Shown piece by piece: positions 2,777-19,614 of a stretch of DNA of 64,000 bases. How positions within the stretch are numbered: the first letter of the stretch is position 1; the number at the start of each line of letters is the position of its first letter. Made by a program: the position numbers and the translations under genes. Below the pieces are notes generated by a model, which was given only the letters and a program-made list of their open reading frames with translations, had not been told where the DNA came from and ran no database searches. Source of the stretch: a virus; the IMG/VR virus record IMGVR_UViG_3300037467_001806, positions 1-64,000 of that record; one strand, 5' to 3'.

Positions 2777-2852
2777 CCGGGTGAAAGAGTTCGTCGACTC
2801 GGTCGATGGAGTGGAAGTCAAACTTGTGTGCACTTATTAAAGGAGTTTCACC

Positions 2853-3122
2853 ATGCAGTTCCTTACCATCCTGAAGATTTTCCTGTCCTTGATCCCGCTG
2901 ATTTCCGAAGCGGTCAAGACCGTGGAAGCTGCCCTGCCCTTCAACGGCGTGGGCCAGCAGAAGCTGGAAATGGTGCGTCAGACCCTGGACGCCTCCTACA
3001 AAGCGGCCAGCGACATGACGGTGCCGTTCGAGGCGCTGTGGAATCTGGCGCAGCCGCTGATTACCAGCATGGTGGCGGTCTACAACGCTACCGGCGCTTT
3101 CCCGCGCAGCGACGCCAAGTAA
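2853..3122 (+). CDS. small membrane protein, holin-like
   Basis: SD AAAGGAG. N-terminal TM MQFLTILKIFLSLIPLISEAV, then an amphipathic region. Last gene before a terminator. Confidence 0.45.
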   Translation: MQFLTILKIFLSLIPLISEAVKTVEAALPFNGVGQQKLEMVRQTLDASYKAASDMTVPFEALWNLAQPLITSMVAVYNATGAFPRSDAK

Positions 3123-3131
3123 TTTTTTGGC

Positions 3132-3204
3132 AACGCCTTGCCTTGAGGTAGGTTTCCGGTGTAAAGTACCGGCACTTGCTGAGAGGCAAGGCGTTTCTTC
3201 TTTC
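3132..3204 (+). terminator. long-stem hairpin with T-rich tail
   Basis: Arms AACGCCTTGCC (3132-3142) and GGCAAGGCGTT (3185-3195) enclose an inner hairpin CCGGT..ACCGG (3156-3172), followed by TCTTCTTTC. Confidence 0.5.
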
Positions 3205-3218
3205 ACGACCTGATCGCC

Positions 3219-5051
3219 ATGCCTCTGCAACGCTTGAAATTTAAGCCTGGAATTGACCGCAGCAACACGAACTACGCCAATGAGGGCGGGTTCTTCGCCT
3301 GCGACAAAGTCCGTTTCCGCTCCGGTACCGCCCAAAAGATCGGCGGCTGGATCAGCTACATGGGGCAGACCGTCCTGGGTTCGGCGCGCGGCCTGTTCAA
3401 CTGGGTCACGCTGGACTCGACCAACATCCTGGCCATCGGCACCAACATCAAGTACTACGCCGAGCATGGCGGCTCCCTTTACGACATCACCCCCCTGCGT
3501 TCTTCGACGACGCTGACAAGCCCTTTCAGCACCACGATCGGTTCTACCACGGTGACCGTTACCCACGTGGGGCATGGCGCGGCCAACGGCGACTATGTGA
3601 CTTTTTCGTCTTCGACGCCGGCTGCCGGCATCGTCTTCGACGCAGAGTTCCAGATTACCTACGTGGATGCCGACCACTACACCATCCAGGGCAGCACGGC
3701 GGCAACAGCCACCACGACGGGCGGCGGCAGTCCGGTGGCGGCGTACCAAATCTCCATCGGCAAATCCATTTCGTCGGCCGGTCGCGGCTGGGGTGCTGGC
3801 TTTTGGGGGCGCGGCACGTGGGGCTCGCCGGCAACGCAATCGGTGCAATCGGTGGCGCTGCGCCTGTGGTCCCAGGAAGCCTTCGGCGAAGATCATCTGT
3901 TTTGCATCCGCAACGACCGCATCTACCTTTGGCGCTACAACAACGGCGTCGGGTTCGGCACGCGCGCCATCGCGCTGACTTCGGCAGCAGGTGCATCTGA
4001 TGTGCCGGTGGTGGCGACCAAGCTCCTGATGTCTACGGCCGACCGTCACCTGATCGCCTTCGGTACCAACAAGGTGGGCGACACGGCGCAAGACCCGCTC
4101 CTGATCCGCTGGGCTACGGCTGAGTCCTACACCAATTGGACGATTGACGCGCTGACGACTACGGCTGGTGAGTTGCGCTGCTCGTCGGGCAACTACATCG
4201 TGACGGCTGTGCGTTACGGCGCGCAGATTCTGGTCTTCACCGACAGCACCATTTTCGCTATGCAGTTCATCGGCTATCCGCTGGTGTTCGGCATGCTGCC
4301 GGTGGCCGACAACATATCCATCATTTCTCCCAACGCTGTCGTGGTAGCCGGCGCCAATACGTTCTGGATGGGCACTGACAAGTTCTACGTCTATAACGGC
4401 CAAGCGCAGACGTTGCCGTGCACCCTGGTGCGATATGTGTTCGACGACTTCAACACGCAGCAAGCGTCCCAGGTTTTCTCCGGGTCCAACGAGGCTTTCT
4501 CGGAAGTGTGGTGGTTCTACTGCTCGGGAAACAGCAGCACGATCGACCGCTACGTGGTCTACAACTATGCGGAGAACCTGTGGTATCCGGGCACGATGCA
4601 TCGCACCGCTTGGCTGGACTCGCATTTGAAGCAGTACCCGGTTGCTGCGTCCGACAGCAACCTGTATTACCACGAAGCTGGCTATGACGACGACCGTACC
4701 CAGCCGATCAATTCGTGGATTGAAACGTCCGACTTCGACCTGGCTGACGGCGAGAACTTCAGCTTCGTCAAGCGTGTGATCCCCGATGTGGAGTTCTCCG
4801 GTTCGACGGCCAACAACCCGAGCATCGTGCTCACCCTCACTCCGCGCAACAGCCCTGGCAGCGCGTATAAGGACGGTGACGCGACTTCTGTCGCGCGAAG
4901 CGTTAGCGTGCCCTACGACCAATTTACCGAGCGGCTGGATGTTCGCCTGCGCGGGCGCCAGATCAAGATGCGCATCGAAAGCACGGACCTTGGCGTGGCA
5001 TGGCAGTTGGGCGTGCCGCGGATCGAAATTCAACCGGATGGGAAAAAATAA
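3219..5051 (+). CDS. virion structural protein (putative tail/nozzle-associated), function unknown
   Basis: 610-aa ORF with GC3-rich codons at the head of a run of translationally coupled virion genes. No motif I can name. Confidence 0.5.
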   Translation: MPLQRLKFKPGIDRSNTNYANEGGFFACDKVRFRSGTAQKIGGWISYMGQTVLGSARGLFNWVTLDSTNILAIGTNIKYYAEHGGSLYDITPLRSSTTLTSPFSTTIGSTTVTVTHVGHGAANGDYVTFSSSTPAAGIVFDAEFQITYVDADHYTIQGSTAATATTTGGGSPVAAYQISIGKSISSAGRGWGAGFWGRGTWGSPATQSVQSVALRLWSQEAFGEDHLFCIRNDRIYLWRYNNGVGFGTRAIALTSAAGASDVPVVATKLLMSTADRHLIAFGTNKVGDTAQDPLLIRWATAESYTNWTIDALTTTAGELRCSSGNYIVTAVRYGAQILVFTDSTIFAMQFIGYPLVFGMLPVADNISIISPNAVVVAGANTFWMGTDKFYVYNGQAQTLPCTLVRYVFDDFNTQQASQVFSGSNEAFSEVWWFYCSGNSSTIDRYVVYNYAENLWYPGTMHRTAWLDSHLKQYPVAASDSNLYYHEAGYDDDRTQPINSWIETSDFDLADGENFSFVKRVIPDVEFSGSTANNPSIVLTLTPRNSPGSAYKDGDATSVARSVSVPYDQFTERLDVRLRGRQIKMRIESTDLGVAWQLGVPRIEIQPDGKK

Positions 5052-5296: not shown

Positions 5297-6400
5297 ATGG
5301 GTGGCTTGTTTGATGGGATCGGCGATGTGCTGGGCGGGGTAGGTGATGCAGTGGGCGGCGTCGTCCAAGGCATTGCTGATAACCCCGGCCTGGCTCTGAC
5401 CGCAGCGACCTTGCCGTTTGGCGGCATCGGTGGCTTGGCCGGACTGGGTGATGCCGGCGCGATGGGAGGCCTGGGCAATTTTGGCCTGGATACTGCGCTG
5501 GGCGGTGCTGAGTTTGGCGCCGACTCCATCGCCGGTTTGGGCGCAGCCGGGGGGTTGGACAGCGCCATGATCGACCCGTCGTGGTTCGACCCAGGTGTGT
5601 GGTCCGAGACCCTGCCTGAAGCGTCGGCCAACGGCACCTTGTCCGCGCTGGGCAGCGCGTCCGGTGGCGGCGGTGGTTTGATGGATATCCTGCAGAACGG
5701 TATTTCCAAGGCCGGCCAGAAAATGTCGACCATGAGCCTGGGCGATCTGCTCAAGCTGGGCGGCCTGGGCGCAGGCGCCATCGCTGGTCTGTCGGGCCAC
5801 AACGGCATGCCCAAGTTCACCCCGTGGACGATGCCGCAGGCACCGGGCTTCCTGACGGCCAGCCGCTCTTTCGACCCCAGCACCAAGCAATTCGGGCAGG
5901 TGCAATATGCTCCGCGCGGTTACGCCGCGGGCGGTCTGGCCTCGATCGGAGGTGGCCGCCGCCCAAAGTATGTTAGCCCGCACGACAAGGCCGTCTCCGC
6001 GCTGCGCAGCCGTTATCGCAGCCGCAAGCAGGCCGAAGCCGATGCGGGCATCCCTGGCACCGTGGCCAACCAAGTGCTGCAAGGCCCGGGTGACCCGGTG
6101 CTGGATGATGCGTTCGCTTATGCCAGCCCCCAGCAGCAAAACTTCGCTGGCGGCGGCTTGGCCGTTGGCCCTGGTGATGGCATGAGCGACGACATCCCGG
6201 CTGTGATCGACGGCCAGCATCCCGCCGCGATCGCCACGGACGAATACATCGTGCCGGCTGATGTTGTGTCCCACATCGGCAACGGGTCGTCCAGCGCCGG
6301 CGGCAAGGCGCTCGACAGCATGGTCTCACGCATCCGGCAAGCGCGCACCGGGCGCTCGAAGCAAGCTCCGCGCATCAACCCTAACCAGTTCCTGAAATGA
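5297..6400 (+). CDS. Gly-rich internal virion/ejection-type protein
   Basis: SD GGAGAAGG. Extremely Gly/Ala/Leu-rich N-terminal half. C-terminus GDGMSDDIPAVIDGQHPAAIATDEYIVPADVVSHIGNG, plus YAAGG and FAGGG motifs. Confidence 0.55.
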   Translation: MGGLFDGIGDVLGGVGDAVGGVVQGIADNPGLALTAATLPFGGIGGLAGLGDAGAMGGLGNFGLDTALGGAEFGADSIAGLGAAGGLDSAMIDPSWFDPGVWSETLPEASANGTLSALGSASGGGGGLMDILQNGISKAGQKMSTMSLGDLLKLGGLGAGAIAGLSGHNGMPKFTPWTMPQAPGFLTASRSFDPSTKQFGQVQYAPRGYAAGGLASIGGGRRPKYVSPHDKAVSALRSRYRSRKQAEADAGIPGTVANQVLQGPGDPVLDDAFAYASPQQQNFAGGGLAVGPGDGMSDDIPAVIDGQHPAAIATDEYIVPADVVSHIGNGSSSAGGKALDSMVSRIRQARTGRSKQAPRINPNQFLK

Positions 6401-6834
6401 ACCTGCAAATCACAATAGTCCCGCACGGACACATCAACCAAGTACTGCCCAAAGTGATCGGCTACGTCCGCAAGATGGAGCCGTATTTGTACGGCCGCGC
6501 TGGCGTGGACAGCGTCATCAAGGCCATGCTCAACCCCGAAATCCAGACGTGGATCATCTACGACGAAGACGAGGTTGTGCACTTTTATGCCACCACGCAG
6601 ATCGCTGCTTTCCCGCTGGGGAAGAACCTGATGGTGCTCAATTGCGGCGGGCGTGACGGCGTCATGGATGAAATGGCGCCCCAAATGTTGCATGCGTTCG
6701 AGCAGTTCGCGCGCGGCAACGGATGTAAAGGAATCGACATTCAAGGTCGTCCTGGCTGGAAGAAGTGGTTTTCGCCGGCCGGCTTTGAAACCTCGTGGGC
6801 GCATTACTTCAAAGCGCTGGAAGATAAGGAGTAG
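6397..6834 (+). CDS. hypothetical protein, weak GNAT-like acetyltransferase resemblance
   Basis: ATGA coupling. C-terminal AFEQFARGNGCKGIDIQGRPGWKKWFSPAGFE resembles a GNAT core, but the Q/RxxGxG/A motif is imperfect. Confidence 0.4.
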   Translation: MNLQITIVPHGHINQVLPKVIGYVRKMEPYLYGRAGVDSVIKAMLNPEIQTWIIYDEDEVVHFYATTQIAAFPLGKNLMVLNCGGRDGVMDEMAPQMLHAFEQFARGNGCKGIDIQGRPGWKKWFSPAGFETSWAHYFKALEDKE

Positions 6835-6837
6835 GAA

Positions 6838-8223
6838 ATGGGAAGCGGCCTGAACCAAGTCGGCATGCAACAGCAGGCGACGAGCCAATACTACCAGCCG
6901 TTTTACGACGACATGGCTCAGCGCGCGCAAGCGCTGTCTACGCTGCCGTTCCAATCGTACGGCAGCGCACCGGGTTCCAACGGCTACACGCAGCAGGCCG
7001 CGCAAGGCTTCGCCGACTTCCAACCGGCGTGGCAGCTCGGTCGTGGCAGCGACATGCTCAACGACGCCTTCGGTGGCTTGTCCAGCCTGGGCAACTATTC
7101 GGCCGGCTCCATCTACAGCCCGTACAACGCGCAGGCTGTGCAGATGTTCAACAAGCCCAACGATGTGGGCATCTATAGCGCACCGAACCAACTGCAGATG
7201 TATGGCGCACCGTCGCCCTTGCAGATGTTTGCCGCGCCCGATAAGGTGGCCAACACGTACAACCCGGAGAGCTTCACCGCCGCGGGTACGTCCGAGAAGT
7301 ACATGGACCCCTACATGCAGGGGGTGGTGGATATCGCCAAGCGTGAAGCTGATCGTACGTTCGCCCAGCAACAGCAGCAGCGCGACGCCACGGCTGCGCA
7401 GCAAGGCGCGTTTGGCGGATCGCGCGCCGGGCTCGTGAATCAAGCTGCGCAGCGCGACCAGGATCAACTGCTCAACGACATCCAGACCAAGGGTCTGGAC
7501 AGCGCGTGGCAGCAAGCCATGGCGCAGTTCAACGCCGAGCAGCAGGCCAAGGCCACGGCCGCCGGCATGGGTCTGGACGCTTCCAAATTCAACTCTGGCC
7601 AGCAATTGCAATATGGCCTGGCAGGTTTGAACGCGCAGCAGTTCGACAAGAGCATGCAGCAGAAGTACGGCGAAGACTGGCTCGGTATGCAGCAGAACAA
7701 CATTGCCAACGCGATGAAGTACGGCGAAGACGTGCTGGGCAAGGACATCTTCAACACCAACACCGCCATGGATTATGGCAAGACCGGCCTGCAGAACTCG
7801 CAGTTCAACGAGCAGCAGCGCCAGCAAGAAGGTGCCATGCAGTTGCAAGCCATGATCTCGCAGGAAGCCGCCAAGCTGGGCGCCTACAACGCCAACGTGG
7901 GCCGTTACACCGGCATGGGCGGCATGGGCAGCGCCATGGGCAACATCGGCGCGACCGTCGGCAATCAGCAACTGTCCGCCCTGGGTGGTTTGGCCTCGGC
8001 TGGCAACAGCTTGTGGAACCAGGACTTCCAAGCCGATAACGCCAACTACAACCGTTTCATGCAGGCGCAGATGTGGCCCATGCAGCAGTTGCAGTTCGAG
8101 AAGGGCATCATGAGCGGCCTGCCGGGACCGACGTTGACTTCGACGCAGTACGGTGGCTTGGGCGCGAACCCGTATTCGCAGGGGCTGGGCAGCTTGATCG
8201 CCCTGGGTGGCATGCTGGGCTAA
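6838..8223 (+). CDS. Gln/Asn/Gly-rich internal virion protein
   Basis: SD AAGGAGTAGGAA. 461 aa with low-complexity Q/N/G/A composition and repeated QMY/QMF segments. Confidence 0.55.
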   Translation: MGSGLNQVGMQQQATSQYYQPFYDDMAQRAQALSTLPFQSYGSAPGSNGYTQQAAQGFADFQPAWQLGRGSDMLNDAFGGLSSLGNYSAGSIYSPYNAQAVQMFNKPNDVGIYSAPNQLQMYGAPSPLQMFAAPDKVANTYNPESFTAAGTSEKYMDPYMQGVVDIAKREADRTFAQQQQQRDATAAQQGAFGGSRAGLVNQAAQRDQDQLLNDIQTKGLDSAWQQAMAQFNAEQQAKATAAGMGLDASKFNSGQQLQYGLAGLNAQQFDKSMQQKYGEDWLGMQQNNIANAMKYGEDVLGKDIFNTNTAMDYGKTGLQNSQFNEQQRQQEGAMQLQAMISQEAAKLGAYNANVGRYTGMGGMGSAMGNIGATVGNQQLSALGGLASAGNSLWNQDFQADNANYNRFMQAQMWPMQQLQFEKGIMSGLPGPTLTSTQYGGLGANPYSQGLGSLIALGGMLG

Positions 8224-8232
8224 GGGGGTAAC

Positions 8233-9966
8233 GTGGAAAACTTGATTCAATTGCAGGCTCAGCTCCAGAAGGTGCCCGACCAATCGTTGCAGGGCTACTT
8301 GCACCAGCCGTCGCAGGCTGTGCCGCCGTTCATGGTGCTGATGGAAATGCAGCGCCGCGCCAAGACGCGCCAGCAAGCGCAAGCCCCGCAGCAGCCGGCC
8401 CCGCAAACCACCGTGGCGCAAGACCTCGAAGCACAGGATGGCGGCCTGGGTTCGCTCAATATGCAGGCGCCGCAAGGCTTCAAGGAAGGCGGCATCGTGG
8501 GCTACGCCGATGGCGGTAGCGTGGACGATGAAGACGTGGCTCCGATCGTGAAGATCGGCCGTTATCTGGAAGGCTTGATGCCGCAGCCCAGGTATGGCGA
8601 CATCCGTCAGCAACCGGGCATCGACGACATGATCGGCAACAGCCAGCGCAGCATGCTGGGCTTCATCAATGGCCTGGGCCGGCCGACCACGGCCACGCCG
8701 GGTTTCAACCCCAACGCCTCCAGCCCCGGGTTCGTGCCGCCTGCAGCGCTGGGCGGTATGTCCATGCCGCCTGATACGCCTGCTCCGATCGCCGACGCCG
8801 CCCAAGCCGTTGCCGGTGGTGGCATGGACCGCCTGTCCTTACTCAAACAGGAGTGGCAGAAGTACATGATGGCCGGCGACACGAAAAGCGCCGACGTCGT
8901 GCAGCGCGAAATCGACCGCCTGGAAAGCGGCCAGACCGGCGACACCCACTCCACCAGCGATGAACTCGGCGCGCGCGTGGCTGCGGCCGGCGCTGCCCCT
9001 GCTGTCGGCGGCCTGGCTTCTGTGCTGACCCGTGGCACCCCTGCGGCCGCGGCTGGCCCTGCGGGTGGCCTACAGCCCATGGCTGTGCCTGATGCCCCGG
9101 TGCGCCCCAACGCCCCTTCCAACTACAGCATGGACGATGTGCTGGCCGCCCAGCAGCGCATTGCTGCCAACTTGCCGGATATCTACGGCCGCGCCAACGA
9201 CATTGCCGAAGCACGCGCTGCCCGCGCAGCAGATCGCCGCCAGAATGCCGGCAAGGACTCGGCCCTGGAAATGGGTCTGTCCATGATGGCGTCCAAGAAC
9301 CCCAGCTTCACCGGCAGCATCGGCGAGGGCGGCTTGGCTGCGCTCAAGGCCCAGCGCGACAGCGAGCGGCTGGCTGACAAGGACATGGACACCGCAGACG
9401 ACGTTCGCATCAAGGTGTTGCAGGCCCAGCGCGCCGCGGCCCAGGGTGACATGCAGACGGCCGCAGCCATCATGAACACCATCCACGACAACGAGTCGCG
9501 TGACTATCAGACGCAGGCCAGCATGTACGGCGCTGACCAGCAGAACCGCGCCTCGATCTTCGGCCACAACGTGCAACTGCAAGCCGCCAACTCGCGCGCC
9601 GAGATTGCGCAGTTGGTAGCCGAAGGCCGCATGTCGCAGATGGAGGCCAACATGGCTCTGGCCGGCCTGCGCATGCAGAACGAAGCGATGAAGGGCGAGC
9701 TGGGCCAGCGCAAGCAGGACGAGACGGAGCGCCGCAACGTGCAGCAGTACTTCGACACCGAAGTGAACAACTACGTGCAGCGTGCGCAGCAGGGCATGGG
9801 CGGTGTGCAGAACATGAACAAGACGCCGGATCAGTTGCGCAACGAAGCCGAAGCCTATGTGCTGTCGCGCATGAGCCCGGAAGATCGCAACAAGATCAAC
9901 CGCCAGCAAGGTAACGCGCCCAGCGGCACGCTGAAGATCGGTCCCAACGGCCAGTGGGTCAAGTAA
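8233..9966 (+). CDS. internal virion protein with coiled-coil C-terminal half
   Basis: GTG start after AAGGGGG. FKEGGIVGYADGGSV motif, Ala/Pro-rich middle and a charged Q/R/A-rich helical C-terminus. Confidence 0.55.
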   Translation: MENLIQLQAQLQKVPDQSLQGYLHQPSQAVPPFMVLMEMQRRAKTRQQAQAPQQPAPQTTVAQDLEAQDGGLGSLNMQAPQGFKEGGIVGYADGGSVDDEDVAPIVKIGRYLEGLMPQPRYGDIRQQPGIDDMIGNSQRSMLGFINGLGRPTTATPGFNPNASSPGFVPPAALGGMSMPPDTPAPIADAAQAVAGGGMDRLSLLKQEWQKYMMAGDTKSADVVQREIDRLESGQTGDTHSTSDELGARVAAAGAAPAVGGLASVLTRGTPAAAAGPAGGLQPMAVPDAPVRPNAPSNYSMDDVLAAQQRIAANLPDIYGRANDIAEARAARAADRRQNAGKDSALEMGLSMMASKNPSFTGSIGEGGLAALKAQRDSERLADKDMDTADDVRIKVLQAQRAAAQGDMQTAAAIMNTIHDNESRDYQTQASMYGADQQNRASIFGHNVQLQAANSRAEIAQLVAEGRMSQMEANMALAGLRMQNEAMKGELGQRKQDETERRNVQQYFDTEVNNYVQRAQQGMGGVQNMNKTPDQLRNEAEAYVLSRMSPEDRNKINRQQGNAPSGTLKIGPNGQWVK

Positions 9967-12900
9967 ATGGCATATAACATCGAACTGCCGGACGGGCGCA
10001 GCGTAGAAGTCGACGACAGCGTCGATCAGGAGACTGCACGCCGTATGGTGATGCAGCGCTTCCCCGATCAATTCCCTGACACCAAAGGTTTCATGCCGGC
10101 CCTGAAGTCAGCGGGCCAGGGCGCGCTGGCCGATATCGACACCACCATGTCGCAGATTGCCAAGCAGTTCGGCAACGACAGCGCGGCTGACTTCTATACC
10201 CAGCGTTCCAAATCCAACCGGCAGGGCAGCGAGAGCAATTTCAACCCGACCTCGCTGGACGATATCGGCAACGCCTACAACGACCAGGGGCTGGGTCCGG
10301 CTGCGGGTAAAGGTTTTGATTGGCTCAAAGAGCAAGCAGGCTCCATGATCGGGCGGTATGGTCCGGCCTTGGCAGTGGGTGCGGTGCCGGGCGTGGGTCC
10401 GGCCTTGTCCCTTGGCGCGCTGACCGGCGAGGAATCCGGCGCCAACATCAAGCGCAAGCAGGATGTGTCCGGCCAAACCGATCTGTCCAGTGGTGACTTG
10501 GCCACCAGCTTGGGGCTGGGTCTGGTGCAAGGCGCGATCGACAAGTTCGGCTTCGGCAAGATGTTCTCCGGTGTAGCCGCACCTATGGCCGAGCGCGCCG
10601 CGGCTGACCTGGTGCCGCAGGTATTGAAAGGCGAGATTACCAAGGACGTCGCCATCAACAAGCTGGGCGGTCGCCTGCAGTATTTCCTGTCCGAGACGGG
10701 GGCCAACGCCGCCCTGGGCGCCGGCATGAACACGGCGATCGAAGGTACGCGCCGCCTGGCCGCTGGCCAGCCGCTGGTGGACGACGAAGCTTTAAAGGCC
10801 TACGGCGAAGGTGCCATTGGCGCCGCCGCCATGTCGCCGTTTTTTGGCCTGGGTGTTGGTGCGCGCGCCCGGCACGGTGCCGAGGGCCAGATTCGTGATG
10901 CAGCCAAGGCGTACGATGACCGGGTGCAGATGGCTGAGCGTGGCCAGACCAAGGGCTTCAACGACGAGCAGGCTGCAGCGGCCCGGTACGACCCGGAGAA
11001 CCCCAACAGCATAGACCAGCAGTTCTACGCAGCCCAGGACGCGCAGCGCGCCAAAGAACAGGCTGAACAATCCTCACGTGCAAGTGAGTTTTGGCGCCAG
11101 AACGACGCGCGCCAGCAGCAGTTCAACGACGAGCTGTCCCAGCGTATCCGTGCCGGCGTGCAGGACGAGATTGCATCGCGCGACGCCGCCCAGCGTAACC
11201 CGGACGCAGTCGCCGCCTTCACCGAGAACCAGCCTGATGTGCTGGGTGATTTCCGCCCCGATATGGAGAATCCCATATCGGAAGGCCGGCGCGCAACGGA
11301 TCAGCCGGTTGAGCCGCCCAACCCGATGGAGCAGCCCCTGCTGGCCGGCCTGGAGCCGGAGCAGGCCATGGACCGACGTGCCACCGACGCCCCGCCGCAA
11401 CCCGAGGTTTCCACGCCTGCCACGTTTGAAGGCGCGGTGTTCCCGCGCGCGGCGGCCATGAAGCGTATCGTCGGCCTGGACATGGGCGACCTGGACAACC
11501 TGCGCACTGTCAACGAAGAACTGCGCCGCTACCGTGACAACGTGCTGGCCACGGGCATGACGGAGAAGAACGCAGAGCAATACACGTCGATGATGAACCG
11601 CATCGACGAAATCCGTGACAACCTGAAGCAGCGCATTGCTCAACTGCGCAACAGCGATCAAGGGCAACCCAGCCTGAAACTGCCGCCCGGTGTGGCACTG
11701 GGCGAGCAGCGCAGCAGCTTCCTCAAAGCCGCTCCCGGTGAAGAACCCGTGCTCGGCATTAACGGGGTCAAAAATGAAAATGTTCCTGCTGGGTTTGGTC
11801 GGCGTGCTGGCCCTGATGTGCAAGCGCAAACCGGAGACGGAAATGGAGGAAGGCTACCTGCTGGTGGACGGGGACAACAAGGTGCGGCTGACGGACTCCC
11901 AGGTGAGCAGCCTGTGGGACTTCATGGTGCACCAGAGGGCGATCTGGCCAATGGACTGCCCAACAATAACGGAGAACCAAGCCAAGTTCCTGGTGGACTG
12001 GCTGTCGACAGTGTACGAGGAACGGTCCGGGGCAACCCTGCACTGAGCAGCCTGTCGCCTGATCGCTTGGCAGCCATCGAGCGCGCCCGCGCGGCCATGC
12101 AGGCTGAAGACGCACGCAAAGCGTCCATGATTACGGCTGACAAGACCAAGGCCAGCTTCTCGCCGGATGACTGGAATCAGGCGATCGCCGAGTACGAGAA
12201 ATCGAAGAAAGGCGAGAACCCGCAGGACTATGCACCGGGTGATGACTTCTATTCCGGTAAGGTGCAGAAGGACGCGCCGATCAGCGAAGACATGCAAGAT
12301 GTGGTGGCTTTCAACGGTGACCCGCTGGCGGCCATGGCACGGCTTGGCAAGGACACGCAGAATCCGCTGCTCAAGCAAGTCAGCGAAGTGGCGCTGGCCT
12401 ACCCGCATCTGGCGCCCAAGGCCGTCATGTTCGACAAGACGCTGCCGTCCGACAAGGCGGGTGCCTACGATCACGCGACCAATACTATCCATCTGGCCGA
12501 GCCCGCCAACGAGCGGGTGCTGGCGCATGAGTACATGCACGCCATGACCTCACGGGCGCTGGAGCCGGGGGCCAAACTCACGCCGGACCAGCGCAGCGCT
12601 GTGCAGAACTTGAACTCCAACTACAACACGGCCAAGTCGGTGGCCAGCCAGTATGGGCTGGAGGGACACAACGGCCTGACCAACGTCAAGGAGTTCGTGG
12701 CGGAGTCCTTTACCAACCCCGACTTCCAGAAGGCGCTGTCCAACATCCCGCTGCCCGGCAAACAAGCCACCAAGGGCGTCAACTCCCTGTGGGATCAATT
12801 CGTTCGTGCCGTGGGCAAGCTGATCGGCTGGAGCAAGGACCAGGACAATGTCCTGTCCAACACGCTGCACGAAACCAGCAAGCTGATTGCAGCCAGCAAG

Positions 12901-15600
12901 CACAACGTCATGGGCGAGGCGGCCCCGGATACTGCGCGCGACTATGCACCGGCATCCGGGCGCATCCCCTACGACCAGCCTGATGTGGCGGCCGCTGAGC
13001 ATAACAAAGGCCCGCTGGAAAAAATGGTGGAGGGCGCCGACAAGATCAAGGAAACGGCCAAGAACATCAACAGCATCCGTGACTTCAAGGATTGGTTCAG
13101 GGAAGCCAGCTACGTGGCCGAGCAGCGCCTGTTCGACTGGCGCCTGGGCGTGACGCGTCACCTGAACCGTGATGCGACCTATATCGACGCCGATGGCCTG
13201 CGTCGTGCCACCGCTACGGAGTTGCTGGCAGAAAGCGAGTATCGCTACAACATGGGACAGGACTCCCTGGTCACGGGCTATTTGGGCAAGAACAGCGAAG
13301 GTGCCTATCAGGTGCAGCGCGACGACAACGCCAACCTGAAGAAACTGCGTGAGTCGGTCATGGCCCTGCCCGATGAGCTGGGCGCGGACAAGCACAAGGT
13401 GCTGACCAATCTGATGGCCAACCTGTCCTACTACGAGCGTGAAGCCAAAGGTGCTGCCCGTGGCGACGAGGAATATGCCCGGCCGTCGCATGTGAACGAC
13501 GCCATGATGGCGCAGGCGCTGAACGACTACAAGACGATACCGGAAGTGAAGAAGGTCGTGGACATGATTCACGACATGAACATGCACGATATCGACTTCA
13601 TGGAGTCGACCAACCTGATTGGCAAAGACCTGGCCAACGAGTTCCGGCAGAACAAATTCTATATCCCGCTGGATCGCGTCATCGACCAGGAGAACCAGAC
13701 CACTGCATTCAAGCCCGCATCGGGCGGTTCGTTTTCCAAGACCGGGGATAAATTCAAGGGCAGCGAACGGCAGGTGCGTGATGTGCTGGACAGCTTGATC
13801 GAGCGCCGCATGCGCTTGGCCGACTCCGGCATCCGTAACGACGCCACCTTCCACACGATCGAAGAGCTGAAAGCCGACGGCCAGTATGGCATCAAGCAGA
13901 TGCCTGACCACACCAAGCCGGCACCGGACGGCTGGTACAAGGTCAAGGTGCTGGAAGAGGGGCGGCCGACTGCCTACCTGCTCAACGACAAGAACGCTTA
14001 CCTGTCCCTGCGCGGCCTGATGACCGACGCACCGGCTATGTTCCGGGCGTTGGAAAATGCCACGGCCGTGTTTCGCAACGCGATCGTCATCACGCCTGAC
14101 TTCGTCGTGCGCAATATGTTCAAGGACAATACCGAAGCGTGGATGGCGAACTTCACGCACAAGAACATCGCTTCCACCATGGCCGAGTCGTTCGGTCGTT
14201 TCGCGCGCGGTGTCAACAAGCAGGACAACTACGACGTCACCCATTACGGCCTGACCGGCAACCGCGAATTCACTTCGCAGATGCGTGAGTACGACAGCAT
14301 CATCAAGCAGTTCAACCGCTCGGGGAGCGCCAAGGACAAGGCCGCTGGCCTGGACACGTTCTTCTCCAAGCTGTGGGACAAGGCCAACCATATCTCCAGC
14401 GAAGCGGAAGTGGCCACGCGCCAGACGATTTTCAACGCGGCCAAGGAGCGCACCGGCAGCGAGACAGAAGCCATTGCTGCAGCCCGCAACCTGCTGGATT
14501 TCCGCCGTCGCGGCGACATGCAGGCCATCACGATCGCCAAGACCCTGATCCCGTTCTTCAACTCGAACCTGCAGGGCTTCTACAAGTACTACCGCATGAT
14601 TACGCACGGCGACACCACCGGCATGGCAGTCGACAACGCTGTGCGCGGGCTGGCCATCAAGGGCGCCTATATGGCGGCAGCGACCACGGCCTATGCCGCG
14701 GCAATGCAGGGCAACGAGGCCTACCAGCGCGCCAGTCAAAACGAGCGCGACAACTACTGGCTGGTCCCGCTGCCCGGCGGTAGCATGCTGCGCGTGCCAA
14801 TCCCGTACGAGGTGGGTGCAGCCTTCAAGACCCTGCCGGAAGTGATGTTCAACCGCGCCAGCGGGCTGTCGTCGAACCAGGAAACCAAGACCAGCTTGGT
14901 CAAGGCGTTCCAACGCACCTTCCCGCAACTGTCGCTGACCTACTGGATGCCGCAGTATCTGAAGCCGGCGCTGGAAGTGTCGATGAACCGCGACACCTTC
15001 TTCGATCGGCCGCTGGAGCGCGAAGAAGACCTGAAGAAAGAGCCGTGGGTACGCACCAACGACCAGACCACGCCGATGGATCGCGGCCTGGGCGCCATCA
15101 CCGGCCTGTCGCCCATCCAGGCCCAACACATCATCAAGGGCTATCTCGGTACCGTTGGCATGGCCCTGGCGTCGGCGTCGCAGATGGCCAGCCCGAGCGG
15201 CGCGTCTACCCCGACCAACCGCATGCCGGTGGCGGGTTCGTTCCTGACCGATCCGAACCGCTCACGCGACCTGGACAACTACTACGGCTACAAGGACACA
15301 CTGACCAAGGTCAAGACCACGGCAGACGCGCTCAAGAGCCGCGGCGATGTGCAGGGGCTGAAGGAGTATTTGAAAGGCGAGACCAACGGCAAGCCGAACA
15401 CCATGCTGTATCAGATGGCTGGCCAGCTCAACGGCGTCGACACGCAACTGCGCACGATCCGTCAGGCGATGCAGCAGATTGACTATGACAACAGCATGAA
15501 CGCGATCCAGAAGCGCCAGCGCAAGGATCAACTGCGCGCCATGCAGAACCAGATCGCCAAGCAGGTCTCACCGCAACTGCGGCGTTTGATGGAAGACTAG
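9967..15600 (+). CDS. giant (1877 aa) virion-associated multidomain protein with zincin-like HExxH motif (polyvalent-protein-like)
   Basis: Uninterrupted ORF starting right after the upstream TAA. HEYMH at 12526-12540, followed by NVKEFVAESFTNP (a candidate third-ligand Glu). Last gene of the late block. Confidence 0.65.
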   Translation: MAYNIELPDGRSVEVDDSVDQETARRMVMQRFPDQFPDTKGFMPALKSAGQGALADIDTTMSQIAKQFGNDSAADFYTQRSKSNRQGSESNFNPTSLDDIGNAYNDQGLGPAAGKGFDWLKEQAGSMIGRYGPALAVGAVPGVGPALSLGALTGEESGANIKRKQDVSGQTDLSSGDLATSLGLGLVQGAIDKFGFGKMFSGVAAPMAERAAADLVPQVLKGEITKDVAINKLGGRLQYFLSETGANAALGAGMNTAIEGTRRLAAGQPLVDDEALKAYGEGAIGAAAMSPFFGLGVGARARHGAEGQIRDAAKAYDDRVQMAERGQTKGFNDEQAAAARYDPENPNSIDQQFYAAQDAQRAKEQAEQSSRASEFWRQNDARQQQFNDELSQRIRAGVQDEIASRDAAQRNPDAVAAFTENQPDVLGDFRPDMENPISEGRRATDQPVEPPNPMEQPLLAGLEPEQAMDRRATDAPPQPEVSTPATFEGAVFPRAAAMKRIVGLDMGDLDNLRTVNEELRRYRDNVLATGMTEKNAEQYTSMMNRIDEIRDNLKQRIAQLRNSDQGQPSLKLPPGVALGEQRSSFLKAAPGEEPVLGINGVKNENVPAGFGRRAGPDVQAQTGDGNGGRLPAGGRGQQGAADGLPGEQPVGLHGAPEGDLANGLPNNNGEPSQVPGGLAVDSVRGTVRGNPALSSLSPDRLAAIERARAAMQAEDARKASMITADKTKASFSPDDWNQAIAEYEKSKKGENPQDYAPGDDFYSGKVQKDAPISEDMQDVVAFNGDPLAAMARLGKDTQNPLLKQVSEVALAYPHLAPKAVMFDKTLPSDKAGAYDHATNTIHLAEPANERVLAHEYMHAMTSRALEPGAKLTPDQRSAVQNLNSNYNTAKSVASQYGLEGHNGLTNVKEFVAESFTNPDFQKALSNIPLPGKQATKGVNSLWDQFVRAVGKLIGWSKDQDNVLSNTLHETSKLIAASKHNVMGEAAPDTARDYAPASGRIPYDQPDVAAAEHNKGPLEKMVEGADKIKETAKNINSIRDFKDWFREASYVAEQRLFDWRLGVTRHLNRDATYIDADGLRRATATELLAESEYRYNMGQDSLVTGYLGKNSEGAYQVQRDDNANLKKLRESVMALPDELGADKHKVLTNLMANLSYYEREAKGAARGDEEYARPSHVNDAMMAQALNDYKTIPEVKKVVDMIHDMNMHDIDFMESTNLIGKDLANEFRQNKFYIPLDRVIDQENQTTAFKPASGGSFSKTGDKFKGSERQVRDVLDSLIERRMRLADSGIRNDATFHTIEELKADGQYGIKQMPDHTKPAPDGWYKVKVLEEGRPTAYLLNDKNAYLSLRGLMTDAPAMFRALENATAVFRNAIVITPDFVVRNMFKDNTEAWMANFTHKNIASTMAESFGRFARGVNKQDNYDVTHYGLTGNREFTSQMREYDSIIKQFNRSGSAKDKAAGLDTFFSKLWDKANHISSEAEVATRQTIFNAAKERTGSETEAIAAARNLLDFRRRGDMQAITIAKTLIPFFNSNLQGFYKYYRMITHGDTTGMAVDNAVRGLAIKGAYMAAATTAYAAAMQGNEAYQRASQNERDNYWLVPLPGGSMLRVPIPYEVGAAFKTLPEVMFNRASGLSSNQETKTSLVKAFQRTFPQLSLTYWMPQYLKPALEVSMNRDTFFDRPLEREEDLKKEPWVRTNDQTTPMDRGLGAITGLSPIQAQHIIKGYLGTVGMALASASQMASPSGASTPTNRMPVAGSFLTDPNRSRDLDNYYGYKDTLTKVKTTADALKSRGDVQGLKEYLKGETNGKPNTMLYQMAGQLNGVDTQLRTIRQAMQQIDYDNSMNAIQKRQRKDQLRAMQNQIAKQVSPQLRRLMED
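11774..12046 (+). CDS. nested +1-frame ORF inside the giant gene; 90-aa protein with N-terminal signal/lipoprotein-like peptide
   Basis: MKMFLLGLVGVLALMC.. then a globular-looking sequence. Third-codon positions are mostly G/C in this frame, while the host frame switches to A/T-rich third positions (CCT, GCT, GGA, AAT) only over this interval. Confidence 0.55.
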   Translation: MKMFLLGLVGVLALMCKRKPETEMEEGYLLVDGDNKVRLTDSQVSSLWDFMVHQRAIWPMDCPTITENQAKFLVDWLSTVYEERSGATLH

Positions 15601-15604
15601 GGGC

Positions 15605-15666
15605 AAAAAAATCCCCGCGGGGAAGCCAGTGAAGTGAGGGAAGCTGGCTTCTGGATTCCGCGGGGA
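15605..15666. terminator. nested-hairpin terminator at the convergence of late (+) and early (-) blocks
   Basis: Outer stem TCCCCGCGG/CCGCGGGGA (15612-20 / 15658-66) and inner stem GAAGCCAG/CTGGCTTC. The A7 run at 15605-11 supplies a U-tract for the minus-strand transcript. Confidence 0.65.
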
Positions 15667-15712
15667 GCAGTTCATGCACCGGAGGATTGGCTTGAACTTT
15701 CGATAGTATAGC

Positions 15713-15886
15713 CTATTCTTTTGCCTTGCGCTGCACCGGCTGTTTGAGCGGGTGGCTGCTCAGCATCTTTTGAAGCTGAGCAATTTTTTCGTCCCGCTCC
15801 GCGCGCCAACGCGCCTCGCTCTCAGCCATGCGCTTCTCGATGATTTCCCTGCGCATGCGTTTTTGTTTTCGAAACCAATCCAGCAT
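15713..15886 (-). CDS. small charged coiled-coil protein (57 aa, below ORF-track cutoff)
   Basis: Hand translation gives MLDWFRKQKRMRREIIEKRMAESEARWRAERDEKIAQLQKMLSSHPLKQPVQRKAKE. SD GAGGTAAAGA-ATG. Overlaps the 3' end of the next ORF. Confidence 0.35.
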   Translation of the reverse strand: MLDWFRKQKRMRREIIEKRMAESEARWRAERDEKIAQLQKMLSSHPLKQPVQRKAKE

Positions 15887-16040
15887 TCTTTACCTCATAG
15901 TAAGTTTCACCAAGTAAAGCCAGCGCATCTTCTTTCGCGCCACCCCTAGCCTTGACCACATTTTCCACTGCATCAAACAGCTTACGCAAGGCTGCGTTTT
16001 GCTTTTTAAGTGCTGCTACATCGATCACTTCAATGTCCAT
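15822..16040 (-). CDS. hypothetical protein
   Basis: Internal ATG (MDIEVIDVAALKKQ..) preceded by AAGGAGGGAACCG. The track ORF 15822..16088 starts further upstream. Confidence 0.5.
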   Translation of the reverse strand: MDIEVIDVAALKKQNAALRKLFDAVENVVKARGGAKEDALALLGETYYEVKNAGLVSKTKTHAQGNHREAHG

Positions 16041-16671: not shown

Positions 16672-19614
16672 TTACTGCTGTACCCCATCGACTTTGTCAG
16701 GTGCGGCATTTCCTGATTCATGGTTTTCTCCTACTCCGTTTTGCATAACAACCTTGTAGACGCGAACGGCATTCATCAAACCTTTGTCGCCCTTGCCTAC
16801 CTCCTTACTTTCGTTGGCCACCAGCGCGATACGACCACGAGTGTCTTCCAATGGCATGCCGGAATTTGCCATGGCACGCATGAAACCGTCGATTGACAGC
16901 TTCTGATTGCTGCTCAGGTACTCGTTGAACGGACCACGACACAGCATAGCGATCACAGCACCGTTTTTATACACGTCGACGCGCCCGAGTGCCACACCGT
17001 GCGGCTTGCTCTGCATGACCGGATCGGCGTCCGCGCCGCCAACGTGGCTGTACACATACATGGAGTTGATGTTCTGTTGCACGTAGGCCGACAGCACTTG
17101 CTGGTTTTCTTCGTACGCCTGCGGCGACGTTTGCCGTGAGCGCAGCGACTTCACCAACTCCACCAACCACACGCGCATGTCTTCCATGTCGAAGTTAATC
17201 AACCCAGCTTCCCTGGCCAGCAAGCCGCCAACATAAGCTGCCGTGACAGCACCGGACCAGAAACGCTCTTGGTTGGTCATGTTGGTGTCGGCGTCGATCT
17301 TGATCCGTTCTTCATTGAGCATCGCGCGCACCACGTTCACGCCCTTGGCCATGACATGCTTGATGAAGATTTCACCGGCATGGCCATAGTTGTGCTTGAT
17401 GACATTGAATACTCGGTCGGCTTCCTCCTTCTCCAATACGTTGCGGTTCTCTTCTTCAAAGTGCACTTCCAGCAGGCGCATCAGCACGCCTTCGCCACCG
17501 CTTTGCATGGACGTGATGCGATCCACGAAGCTGGTGTTGGCCGTAATCGTCACGGCCGTGGCCCAGTTGGTATGGTTCACGCGCAGACGGTTTGTCTGTG
17601 CCTCCATCCGATCCTTGCCCTGGCCAGACGTAATCTGGTACAGGAAGTCCTGCAAGTCTTCCACCGGCACCCGCGTCATTTCGTCGTAACCGGCTGGAAT
17701 GTTCTTGTAGCAGCCCAGGGTATGCAGCCGGCTGGCCGCCGTGTCCTTGTGGCTGCGCATGGCGTCCGGTGAGCCCCAAATCGTGGCCTGCGTCTCCAAC
17801 ACCGTCGTCTTGCCGTGGCCAGAGCGCTCGCCGTACAGATTCACCACCATGCCCTTCAAATCGAGCAGCGGAATCAAGGGGCCAGCAAATCCCATCAGCA
17901 CACCAAAGCGGTGCGGGGCCAGCCGCTTATCTCGTGCATAGACATTCACTGTGTCGCGCCACGCATCCAGACTGCCTTTGCGCGTAAAACGATCGCAGAT
18001 CGACAGCAGTTCGTCGGACGGCTGGCTGTACTCCACTGTAATGGCACCGCCAGGGTGCCGCTTGATTTCGCGCTCGCCGATGACAAACGAATCGAACTCT
18101 GCGTTCGTCCAGCCGAACTGATGCTTGACCGGCACAGACGGTTTCTGGTCGCGCAAAAACCGATGGTACTCACTGACATACTGCATCAGGTTGGCGAAGC
18201 CGGTGGCCACATGCGGCGGGCGCACGCCCTTCTCGGGCAGCAGCTTCTTGAGCGCTTCACCAAACAGACCGCCCAGCGGCAGCATGAACTGCTTGACGCC
18301 ATCGTGCTTGCCGGTGTTCACGCAAAGCTCGATCAGGTAGTTGTCTCCATCCTTCAAATTAGCCACGGCATAAAAATCTTCATGGCACAACAAGGTGTCT
18401 TCTCCCTCGTCCTTGCCTTGCTTATAGATGCCGCCATGCTTGCCGCGGAAATACCCGTGCGGCAGTGGCGGAATCACATACTGGCGCGGCGCTTCGTCCA
18501 CGTTCTTGTTCTGTGCGATGACGATGTTGTCTTCGCCGACCGCCTTCTGCGTGACCATACCCAGCGACACGGGCGAATTGATCTTCTTGGCGTGCTTGCA
18601 GCCCTTGCAGGTGTCCTTATTCTCGCCGGTCTGGAAATAGGCGCAGTTATGCGGCGCCGGGATTTCGTTGGCTTTCTTCTCCGTCTCCGACGGACTGTAG
18701 GACTCGTGCAGCTCCGATATATCGTGGATCGCCTTGTCGCGGTCCTGTGCCTTGGCGGCAAAGCCCAGCAGATCACGCCACTCCGGTTCGCTGGCATGCT
18801 CCCGGTTGTTCCACATCCGTTTGATCTGCGCGCAGCCGTTGCCTTCCAGGGACAGGCGCAAGAGCTTGCTGAACACCAGCACCTTGTTGGGGTCGTTGCC
18901 CGCCAACTTCTTTGTGGCGTCATCCTCACTTTGTAAATGAGAAATGTCCTGGCCGGCGAACAGTTGCGGCGGCATCGCATTCGGCATGCGCGCATAGGCC
19001 GCGTCCACGATATCGCACAGCTCATCCAGCCCATAGGTGGCGATAGGCGTCAGCATCTGCACCAAGCGCGGGTTGGCCGGGTCTTTGTGGTTGTGCGTGC
19101 CCGGCAGACGCAGCACGCGCACGATATCCGCCGTGGTGCTGTGGTCGGCCTTGAGTCCATGGTGGATGGTCAGCGCCTTGAAGCGCTCCTGCATCGCCTT
19201 GGCATCAGCCGGTACCAGCGCCTCGTCCATGAACCAATAGCAGTGCAGACCACCACCGGACGACACCACGGTGGGCCTGGGCAGGCCGACTGTCTTGCAA
19301 AACGCGCGCAGGCTGGCGCCAGCATCCTGCTGGGATGCGAACTTGTTTTCTTCCGGCCCTACATCCAGGTCAAGTTTGAACAGCTTGACGGCATGTGCAT
19401 TGGCAGCTTCACGACTGTTGGCGGTGGCGAGTGTAGCGGTGCAGAAATAGCAGTTGTGTCCCTCACGATCTTTTTGTGCGGCGTAATTCTCCGCTTGTTC
19501 GTATGCTCCAGCCGGAAAAAACTTATTCCACCGGCGGTCGCCCTTCTGCACGAAGACGCAAATCACTCCATCGCTGTCCAGTGCAGCGGACAGCAACTCC
19601 CTCGCCGTGGTCAT
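16672..19614 (-). CDS. bifunctional DNA primase-polymerase (AEP) / SF3 (D5/P4-like) helicase
   Basis: AEP motifs KLDLDVG, SGGGLHCYW and RLPGTHNHK; Cys cluster CKGCKH; Walker A LYGERSGHGKTT. 980 aa. Confidence 0.85.
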   Translation of the reverse strand: MTTARELLSAALDSDGVICVFVQKGDRRWNKFFPAGAYEQAENYAAQKDREGHNCYFCTATLATANSREAANAHAVKLFKLDLDVGPEENKFASQQDAGASLRAFCKTVGLPRPTVVSSGGGLHCYWFMDEALVPADAKAMQERFKALTIHHGLKADHSTTADIVRVLRLPGTHNHKDPANPRLVQMLTPIATYGLDELCDIVDAAYARMPNAMPPQLFAGQDISHLQSEDDATKKLAGNDPNKVLVFSKLLRLSLEGNGCAQIKRMWNNREHASEPEWRDLLGFAAKAQDRDKAIHDISELHESYSPSETEKKANEIPAPHNCAYFQTGENKDTCKGCKHAKKINSPVSLGMVTQKAVGEDNIVIAQNKNVDEAPRQYVIPPLPHGYFRGKHGGIYKQGKDEGEDTLLCHEDFYAVANLKDGDNYLIELCVNTGKHDGVKQFMLPLGGLFGEALKKLLPEKGVRPPHVATGFANLMQYVSEYHRFLRDQKPSVPVKHQFGWTNAEFDSFVIGEREIKRHPGGAITVEYSQPSDELLSICDRFTRKGSLDAWRDTVNVYARDKRLAPHRFGVLMGFAGPLIPLLDLKGMVVNLYGERSGHGKTTVLETQATIWGSPDAMRSHKDTAASRLHTLGCYKNIPAGYDEMTRVPVEDLQDFLYQITSGQGKDRMEAQTNRLRVNHTNWATAVTITANTSFVDRITSMQSGGEGVLMRLLEVHFEEENRNVLEKEEADRVFNVIKHNYGHAGEIFIKHVMAKGVNVVRAMLNEERIKIDADTNMTNQERFWSGAVTAAYVGGLLAREAGLINFDMEDMRVWLVELVKSLRSRQTSPQAYEENQQVLSAYVQQNINSMYVYSHVGGADADPVMQSKPHGVALGRVDVYKNGAVIAMLCRGPFNEYLSSNQKLSIDGFMRAMANSGMPLEDTRGRIALVANESKEVGKGDKGLMNAVRVYKVVMQNGVGENHESGNAAPDKVDGVQQ

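Follow-up and report, generated by a model that had tools for sequence, protein, structure and literature searches.

We analysed a 64,000-nucleotide stretch of viral DNA (positions 1 to 64,000 of the IMG/VR record IMGVR_UViG_3300037467_001806; hereafter, the window), which is part of a ~75-kb phage genome assembled from metagenomes. The G+C content of the window is 58%, and the G+C fraction at third codon positions (GC3) of its real genes is ~0.75-0.85. On its plus strand lies a gene for a giant protein of 1877 amino acids (aa), referred to below as the host gene and the host protein, and inside this gene a 90-aa open reading frame (ORF) is found in the +1 frame (the nested frame; its extent, 11774-12046, is called the interval). 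The evidence set out below makes it likely that this ORF is a gene in its own right. The features of the locus are the following.

9967-15600, plus strand: host gene, encoding an 1877-aa giant virion/ejected "polyvalent" protein (from the ORF list)
11675-11677, plus strand: TGA stop of the nested frame upstream of the nested ATG; the frame is open from 11678, 32 codons before the ATG
11759-11788, plus strand: AT-rich island at the nested start, with a GC fraction of 0.37 over -15 to +15, containing ATG-AAA
11764-11767, plus strand: Shine-Dalgarno (SD)-like GGGG, 6 nucleotides (nt) 5' of the nested ATG; anti-SD duplex of -5.7 kcal/mol
11773-12045, plus strand: host-frame spacer, host aa 603-693, rich in Gly/Pro/Ala/Asn/Arg, with 22 Gly and 10 Pro in 91 residues
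11774-12046, plus strand: embedded +1-frame gene for the 90-aa protein, stop included; ATG at 11774, TGA at 12044-12046
11780-11821, plus strand: N-terminal hydrophobic helix of the nested protein, aa 3-16, MFLLGLVGVLALMC, flanked by K2 and K17-R18-K19
11888-11929, plus strand: first copy of the helix motif L-T-[DN]-x-Q-[VA]-x-x-L, nested aa 39-52; AlphaFold2 (AF2) helix at 41-53
11966-12007, plus strand: second copy of the helix motif, nested aa 65-78, after a conserved Cys-Pro (aa 62-63); AF2 helix at 67-85
12526-12540, plus strand: HEYMH (HExxH) motif at host aa 854, in the zincin-like domain, ~480 nt 3' of the nested stop
14716-15219, plus strand: LPD38 domain of the host protein, aa 1584-1751 (Pfam PF18857, E 8.3e-29, 101.5 bits versus a cutoff of 27)

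The host protein begins with an N-terminal domain, which is followed by a coiled coil, a linker, a zincin-like HExxH region and, at the C-terminus, the LPD38 domain. LPD38 was defined, among other domains, in "polyvalent proteins", which are packaged and injected by phages (PMC5512222). The tblastn matches to host aa ~750-985 are internal virion proteins of podophages, and a Pfam match of the host protein to Tox-MPTase4 stayed below threshold (14.8 bits versus 25). The HExxH region is conserved (HEYTHAMTSRALEPGAKL) in L003, a second contig that is described below. The initial annotation had placed the interval in a linker just upstream of the HExxH module; the linker is indeed upstream of it, but not immediately adjacent, given the distance of the HEYMH motif from the nested stop.

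The initial annotation had also proposed, from two translations that we found to be exact, that the nested ORF carries the codon signature of the genome while the host frame stays open with A/T-ending codons and recovers its GC3 bias after 12046. Both proposals hold. A codon-usage likelihood model was trained on 24 genes (11,092 codons) and applied to 9015 sliding windows of 91 codons. The shifted frame scored better than the annotated frame in 89 of them, all overlapping the interval, and nowhere else, with its advantage peaking at +67.9 nats at position 11770 against a background of -102 +/- 26. The maximum-scoring segment extended from 11782 to 12021, and the cumulative log-odds turned at 11779 and at ~12021-12040, so that each change-point in codon usage is no more than a few codons away from the nested start or stop. 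Per codon, the log probability was -3.79 in the nested frame, -3.67 in the true coding sequence just downstream and -4.54 in the host frame within the interval. The nested frame was the best of the six frames both in the window and in L003, and its synonymous codon usage matched the genome norm (-74.8 versus -72.8 +/- 5.9).

The GC content at each codon position agreed with the model. Across 11770-12040 the host GC3 fell from 0.70-0.87 to 0.27-0.43, recovering to 0.70-0.77 from ~12010-12100, and the GC at host codon position 1, which is position 3 of the nested frame, rose to 0.8-1.0 inside the interval, where the GC3 of the nested frame is 0.86. The sliding profiles of GC3 and codon usage therefore contain a frame switch, and one that is bounded by the nested ATG and stop. 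Low complexity is not enough to produce such a switch, as a natural Pro/Glu-rich linker of the same host protein (~11290-11440) retains a host GC3 of 0.83-0.87. Nor does an assembly artefact account for it, since the DNA of the interval is base-for-base identical in two independent assemblies, one from Logan (L004) and the other from JGI (L005); a fragment from a third sample (L006), which covers the 3' end of the gene, is identical over 14587-15990. The scan for frame switches was negative in five other long genes of the window and in four distant giant homologues (L001, L007, L009 and L010), including a gene with a GC3 of 0.87; given the result in these homologues, the frame switch was rejected as a general property of LPD38 giant genes. 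Two other candidates for the interval were discarded, namely an antisense gene, as the antisense frames score lower and carry stops in L003, and a structured RNA, for which there was no Rfam match.

A phmmer search with the nested protein against 1.84 billion representative proteins returned a single match, P0042, a protein of 85 aa (E 8.8e-4) whose sole source is L003, a metagenomic contig of 1721 nt from a different JGI sample. The alignment runs nearly end to end, and the two proteins have in common the MK-F start with a hydrophobic N-terminus, two "LT-x-x-Q..L" helices, the Cys-Pro and a final TLH. The ORF of P0042 occupies positions 22-279 of L003, directly 5' of sequence ~50% identical to the host protein after 12046 (aligned stretches ENPQDYAP..DFYSGK and HEY-HAMTSRALEPGAKL, 50% identity between the window and L003), and its frame relative to the host is again +1, with the homologous zinc-peptidase-like domain following shortly after. 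The host frame of L003 is open over all 573 codons of the contig, small gene included, and its GC3, 0.10-0.40 over the small gene, rises to 0.73-0.87 immediately downstream. A misassembly of L003, or its origin as a contaminant from the same genome, is unlikely, as its nucleotide identity to the window is only 57-60%. The homologous giant gene in L003 has the insert, and the conserved frame is the nested one.

This last point was established by aligning each frame independently between the window and L003, with the following scores and z values.

Interval, nested (+1) frame: score 115, z 13.9
Interval, host frame: score 28, z 2.4
Interval, third frame: score 34, z 1.4
Next 90 codons, host frame: score 127, z 13.0
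Next 90 codons, +1 frame: score 59, z 3.8

Judged from these alignments, the nested frame appears to be conserved at coding level, as is the host frame outside the interval, while inside it the host frame is conserved at the level of an out-of-frame reading. Ten of the 34 identical nested residues are retained through synonymous changes between the two relatives. The reverse pattern, in which the host-frame amino acids are conserved and the +1 frame acquires stops, is not what L003 shows; there the nested frame is intact and is the better conserved of the two. We conclude that the amino acids of the nested frame are under selection and that the host frame is only kept open, perhaps also weakly kept hydrophilic. 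Selection on the nested-frame amino acids explains the G/C-ending codons at the free sites of this frame and the linker with A/T-ending codons in the other.

The composition of the host frame can be understood in the same terms. When a GC3-rich gene is read one base early its codons start with G or C, and such codons specify Gly, Ala, Val, Asp, Glu, Pro, Arg, Gln, Leu and His; the richness of the host frame in Gly/Pro/Ala/Arg and its A/T-ending codons are thus largely an automatic by-product and not a separate property. In this respect the initial annotation was right in taking the nested frame as the primary one and the giant protein as tolerating a linker there, but not in presenting the A/T-ending codons and the Gly/Pro content as a feature of their own. 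A small excess remains over what the nested gene would impose. In the window, Gly plus Pro make up 36% of the host-frame residues versus 28% in resampled nested genes (p 0.007), and polar or small residues 83% versus 74% (p<0.001); in L003 the polar or small residues reach 84% versus 79% (p ~0.03), and Gly plus Pro show no significant excess over the resampled genes. There may thus be weak extra selection for a hydrophilic spacer. The host frame is nonetheless free of stops in both relatives, although it stays open in only 7.6% (window) and 3.9% (L003) of trials when the synonymous codons of the nested gene are resampled, which points to selection on read-through itself.

Two repeats were noticed in this segment. 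The internal repeat of the nested protein has an echo in the host frame, GLPGEQPVGL / GLPNNNGEPSQVPGGL. In addition, an exact 12-nt direct repeat, TGAGCAGCCTGT, occurs at 11904-11915 and at 12044-12055, its second copy holding the nested stop; the AGC-AGC-CTG within it encodes Ser-Ser-Leu in both copies, through the nested frame at 11904-11915 and through the host frame at 12044-12055. With a chance expectation of ~0.01 repeats of this kind per 600 nt, it may be left over from the joining of the segment.

Signals for translation are present at the nested start. An SD site as good as its GGGG is found at only 7-10% of 247 internal ATGs, and L003 has an SD-like GAAGGA 7-8 nt upstream of its own ATG (-5.5 kcal/mol). 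The GC content of the island around the start is below that of 99.5% of the sampled positions in the giant gene (mean 0.62) and also below the mean of true gene starts (0.50), and the sequence AATGAAA at the start is common to the window and L003. No promoter or terminator was predicted near the nested gene, so the small gene would ride on the late mRNA of the giant gene. As the nested frame has stops 5' of the ATG, in L003 only 4 codons before it ("CP*RIVQMKLF"), the nested peptide cannot join the upstream giant protein unless a frameshift takes place within a very narrow stretch. Both products would presumably be made, the smaller one through independent internal initiation at ATG 11774.

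Our preferred explanation, which we hold to be probable, is that a true protein-coding gene occupies the interval, contained in full, in the +1 frame, within the gene for a giant packaged/ejected LPD38 "polyvalent" phage protein, and that one late mRNA is decoded in two frames. Ribosomes starting at 9967 would read the interval in frame 0 as a ~90-residue flexible spacer rich in Gly/Pro/Ala, located between the N-terminal third of the giant protein and its zincin-like HExxH domain. Other ribosomes would initiate internally at ATG 11774, in its AT-rich island and with GGGG 6 nt upstream, and would produce a 90-aa protein composed of a short hydrophobic helix, with Lys/Arg on either side, and a ~70-residue acidic domain with two units of strand plus "LT-x-x-Q...L" helix.

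Among the alternatives, the one that survives best is a programmed +1 frameshift or transcriptional slippage at the A-run, from AAA (11770-72) to AAA (11771-73), although we consider it improbable. Its product would be a truncated fusion of ~693 aa (602 + 90 residues), and "MKM" would not be a start. The sequence GGGG-TC-AAA-AAT at 11764-11775 lets tRNA-Lys re-pair in the +1 frame, the nested frame of the window is open for the 32 codons upstream of the ATG, and the codon change-point (11779-11782) coincides with the A-run. Moreover, prfB has an SD-spacer-shift-site layout, which GGGG-TC-AAA-AAT-G resembles in having an SD-like element 2-3 nt before the re-pairing codon. A run of five A's is short for slippage, though, and in L003 the A-run is absent altogether (the host codons are GCA-AAT-GAA), while the TGA of its nested frame 4 codons before the ATG leaves 12 nt with no slippery sequence. 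The features that are conserved between the two relatives are those of a start site: the ATG-AAA, the SD-like element and the MK-F N-terminus.

It could also be argued that in this stretch the giant protein itself was once read in what is now the nested frame, until two compensating indels moved it into the present one, and that the codon signature is a fossil with no separate small protein behind it. A codon signature tells only which frame selection has shaped, segments with compensated frameshifts have been documented in bacterial pangenomes (PMC8788219), and with an out-of-frame stop density of ~3% per codon a stop soon after the second change-point is to be expected. A fossil would decay, however, and the arrangement is older than the split between the window and L003, whose flanking host domain is ~50% identical; over that time the ORF has stayed intact in both, with the same start, the same last three residues and the z value of 13.9 given above. 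The fully genome-typical codon usage in both relatives, together with the SD and AT-island features of the start, further makes such an out-of-frame remodelling of the giant protein very unlikely.

A different doubt concerns the host, as the giant ORF might not be one protein, either because a free-standing small gene lies between two frame-joined genes or because a sequencing indel hides a stop. This would fit with the gene calls in L003, where the small gene was called and the downstream gene was started from ATG 324, and with the nature of polyvalent proteins as mosaics of fused modules (PMC5512222). Against it, neither relative has a stop in the host frame, though chance predicts one in >90% of cases; host-frame conservation is back a few codons after the nested stop, before ATG 324 of L003, the two Met codons being unaligned; and no base differs between the two assemblies across the interval. 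Distant homologues (23-30% identity) moreover align with the N-terminal 300-490 and the C-terminal 700-1100 residues of the host protein in one chain, and many of them contain the parts corresponding to host aa 1 to ~490 and ~830-1877 together in single polypeptides. Such alignments indicate that the giant ORF is ancestrally one polypeptide, and we regard its being two genes as highly improbable. As these homologues are single-chain and lack the frame-switch segment, the giant gene would be ancestral and the embedded gene an innovation of the lineage of the window and L003.

Finally, that a Gly/Pro/Ala-rich linker merely happens to leave an alternative frame open, as ~9% of 91-codon windows do in +1 by chance in a genome whose GC richness favours abundant spurious ORFs, has a negligible probability given that the interval stands alone among the 9015 sliding windows, that the normal linker of the host protein keeps the host GC3 and that L003 holds a homologous ORF with the same features.

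A number of observations weigh against the embedded gene and what we propose for its product. Only two lineages are known to carry it, the window and L003, and the phmmer E value is borderline if taken alone; some similarity is moreover to be expected in any frame of orthologous DNA. The L003 contig starts 21 nt upstream of the nested start, so that the upstream N-terminal part of its giant gene falls outside it. The Nei-Gojobori pN/pS ratio (nonsynonymous over synonymous differences per site) is 0.89 in the nested frame, 1.17 in the host frame and 0.57 in true coding sequence downstream, values that are saturated and weakly directional, and by which the nested protein evolves fast. Around the start, the mRNA is predicted to be no less structured than the background (-19.0 versus -16.5 +/- 4.6 kcal/mol). 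As for the protein, its hydrophobic core of 11-15 residues is short for a transmembrane helix, the AF2 models are of low confidence (pLDDT 66 and 48), no match was found in Pfam, PHROGs, NCBIfam, PADLOC or PDB sequence profiles, and Foldseek searches of the AF2 models against PDB and BFVD gave a best E of ~0.8, the rows for AcrIE3 and Skp1 being noise.

None of the other searches added a relative that carries the nested gene. Neither the DNA of the interval nor either of the two nested proteins had a match in 50,697 GenBank phages, among which fragments of the giant protein gave distant matches only, to the zincin-like region of internal virion proteins; most structural proteins of the window likewise have no close relative in GenBank phages. 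IMG/VR, JGI metagenome contigs and GTDB genomes were scanned with the host segment, with the host alignment of the window and L003 and with the alignment of the nested proteins, yielding only the distant zincin-domain relatives L001 and L002, neither with a homologue of the nested protein. A word-indexed protein search found no match for the nested protein, nor for alignment A2 at E<=1e-8, a threshold that is probably too strict. The 90% cluster of the giant protein contains only a C-terminal fragment, identical to the window. In L002 (contig NZ_JAVXSJ010000033.1 of a Comamonas sp. metagenome-assembled genome), a +1 ORF of 91 codons with a marginal codon switch (log-likelihood ratio 12.8) is found at 5585-5860, just 5' of the part that encodes the zincin-like domain in a different protein of polyvalent type; the ORF shows no similarity to the nested family, and chance is its probable cause.

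With regard to the nested protein itself, the hydrophobic character of its N-terminus is conserved with P0042 and the sequence is not. The maximum Kyte-Doolittle value over 11 residues is 2.84 for the nested protein and 2.03 for P0042, and over 19 residues the values are 1.22 and 0.87 (the criterion for a membrane span being ~19 residues at >1.6); AF2 places a helix at residues 4-16 or 6-14. The basic residues that follow this helix would favour, by the positive-inside rule, a cytoplasmic location of the C-terminal part. The latter, of ~70 residues, is the conserved part of the protein, up to the terminal TLH, and is acidic in both members of the family (net charge of -7.9 in the nested protein and -3.9 in P0042). 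It is predicted by AF2 to form a hairpin-helix-(strand)-helix with an internal repeat, and the helix motif is indeed found twice in both family members, the duplication being clearer in P0042 (LTNEQVEKL / LTDEQAERL).

Several functions were considered and rejected. The N-terminus had initially been described as signal- or lipoprotein-like; it is hydrophobic, but the A-L-M-C16 sequence, with Met at -1 and Leu at -2, is unlike a lipobox, and Cys16 is not conserved, being replaced by Tyr in P0042, so that a lipoprotein or outer-membrane spanin was discarded. A DNA binder of the ribbon-helix-helix type, prompted by the strand-helix-helix pattern, was rejected as the domain is strongly acidic and has no profile match, and a single-gene lysis protein was rejected as the phage encodes an endolysin and holin-like small membrane proteins.

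If a guess is made, with low confidence, the product could be an accessory protein of the late phase whose function is linked to that of the giant ejected protein, whether as its chaperone or as an immunity/exclusion factor, since embedding enforces co-expression and co-inheritance of the two. As a tentative model, a tether to the inner membrane might leave the acidic domain of the product in the cytoplasm, where it would work with or against the giant ejected protein, for example in one of these two capacities. A bolder and rather unlikely version is that an effector and its partner are encoded in two frames of one DNA: a small gene would have been engulfed by the linker or inserted into it in-frame, and the membrane-tethered acidic protein would neutralise or guide the giant protein, either as an immunity/superinfection-exclusion factor against the zincin-like effector of incoming relatives or as a chaperone in the producing cell. 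If this were true, embedding would lock effector and partner together in a form that recombination could not separate.

The closest known arrangement is that of Rz/Rz1 of phage lambda (PMC6139136), to which the initial annotation had already likened the locus. Both cases involve a small ORF fully embedded in the +1 frame of a longer late gene of the same strand, with an N-terminal hydrophobic segment and presumed internal initiation on the same mRNA, and both are missed by gene callers. The likeness is confined to the architecture, as the nested protein has neither the lipobox [LVI][ASTVI][GAS]C (PMC6139136) nor a conserved Cys, and is not Pro-rich like Rz1. Its host is an 1877-aa LPD38 protein located ~9.4 kb from the endolysin gene (1761-2327), unlike the ~150-aa inner-membrane spanin of a lysis cassette, which has an N-terminal transmembrane domain (TMD) and periplasmic coiled coils. 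Furthermore, constraint is one-sided here, whereas both Rz/Rz1 frames contain functional sequence.

In phiX174 (Microviridae), gene E lies inside D, and K and B lie inside A, all of them overprinted. Like the nested protein, E has ~90 aa and an N-terminal hydrophobic domain and is encoded wholly within a morphogenetic gene in a shifted frame. E is, however, the lysis protein of a phage without an endolysin, while this phage has an endolysin and holin-like genes, and the functional part of E is its N-terminal TMD, while the conserved part here is the acidic C-terminal domain. The codon usage also differs from that of a young overprinted gene, as the embedded frame is genome-typical and the host frame is not. 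With viral overprinting in general, the locus has in common dual coding on the same strand, with an ordered protein in one frame and a disorder-prone one in the other. In the usual course the small gene is born inside an old one; by the rule that the frame with genome-like codon usage is the ancestral one (PMC3744397, PMC3494269), the small frame would here be "ancestral" and the giant reading "novel".

The host protein resembles the polyvalent proteins (PMC5512222) in its LPD38 domain, its zincin-like HExxH region and its place in the virion module; in the text of that paper as searched, where the words "overlap" and "linker" do not occur, no out-of-frame gene inside a polyvalent-protein gene is described. 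A further parallel is olg1/olg2 of Pseudomonas phage Fc02 (PMC9936078), small proteins in alternative frames of the same DNA, one of which, a 7.9-kDa exclusion factor, provides a possible analogy of function; they differ in belonging to a lysogeny-control region and in overlapping from nearly the same start, not inside a virion gene.

We see the conserved out-of-frame embedded gene as a variant of a known arrangement, with an unusual one-sided constraint. Two options can be considered for its origin. In the first, a pre-existing small gene would have been inserted in-frame into the linker of the giant gene or run over by the giant ORF. About 8-14% of such small genes leave the -1 frame open, and for embedded spanins an origin through a similar loss of a stop has been put forward (PMC6139136); no free-standing homologue of the nested protein was found in the protein databases searched (phmmer over the 1.84 billion proteins, and the word-indexed search). 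The second option is a gene born in the linker, the constraint having then shifted wholly to it.

Few kinds of phage genes fully embedded out of frame are known, such as Rz1 and E of phiX174, and gene callers miss them. The case described here would add a protein family without detectable relatives beyond P0042, in a new kind of host gene, that of a giant polyvalent/ejected virion protein. Its polarity is unusual, with the amino-acid constraint and the genome-typical codons on the side of the small frame, and the 1877-aa protein requiring only that its frame be open. It provides a natural example for two questions, the origin of overlapping genes (birth inside an old gene versus engulfment by a linker) and the sequence freedom of inter-domain linkers in giant phage proteins. 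In practical terms, a simple frame-specific scan of codon likelihood can expose genes that lie hidden in phage genomes rich in GC. A gene is missing from the annotation of this phage lineage, and engineering the "linker" of the giant gene would silently destroy the nested one.

The remaining annotated genes of the window include the following.

8-997: tail fibre
1761-2327: endolysin (phrog_315, E 1.2e-47)
3219-5051: virion structural protein
52073-53635: terminase
53646-56411: portal
59684-60595: major head protein

No tRNA gene was found in the 64-kb window, nor any Rfam family at the gathering threshold. The true start of the endolysin is probably the Met at residue 27. Around it, a probable lysis cassette is found at 1532-3122. 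Its other members are a coiled-coil protein of 104 aa that has a hydrophobic segment at its C-terminus (1532-1846), a protein of 120 aa with two such segments (2414-2776) and one of 89 aa whose N-terminus is hydrophobic (2853-3122); no obvious lipobox spanin was seen in the cassette. A GroES-like co-chaperonin is encoded between the portal and head genes, at 57108-57548 (phrog_3188, E 4.5e-12). On the other side of the giant LPD38 gene, 3' of it, lies a convergent gene for a DUF927 protein of ~960-1000 aa (16672-19614, minus strand). The LPD38/DUF927 synteny is kept in three very distant relatives (L007, L009 and L010), and the structural module abuts the replication module at this junction alike across the group. 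Lastly, three long antisense ORFs, of 859, 895 and 796 aa (12550-15129, 6118-8805 and 2643-5033, respectively, all on the minus strand), lie opposite real plus-strand genes; they are devoid of the GC3 signature and resemble the shadow ORFs that are typical of GC3-rich genes.

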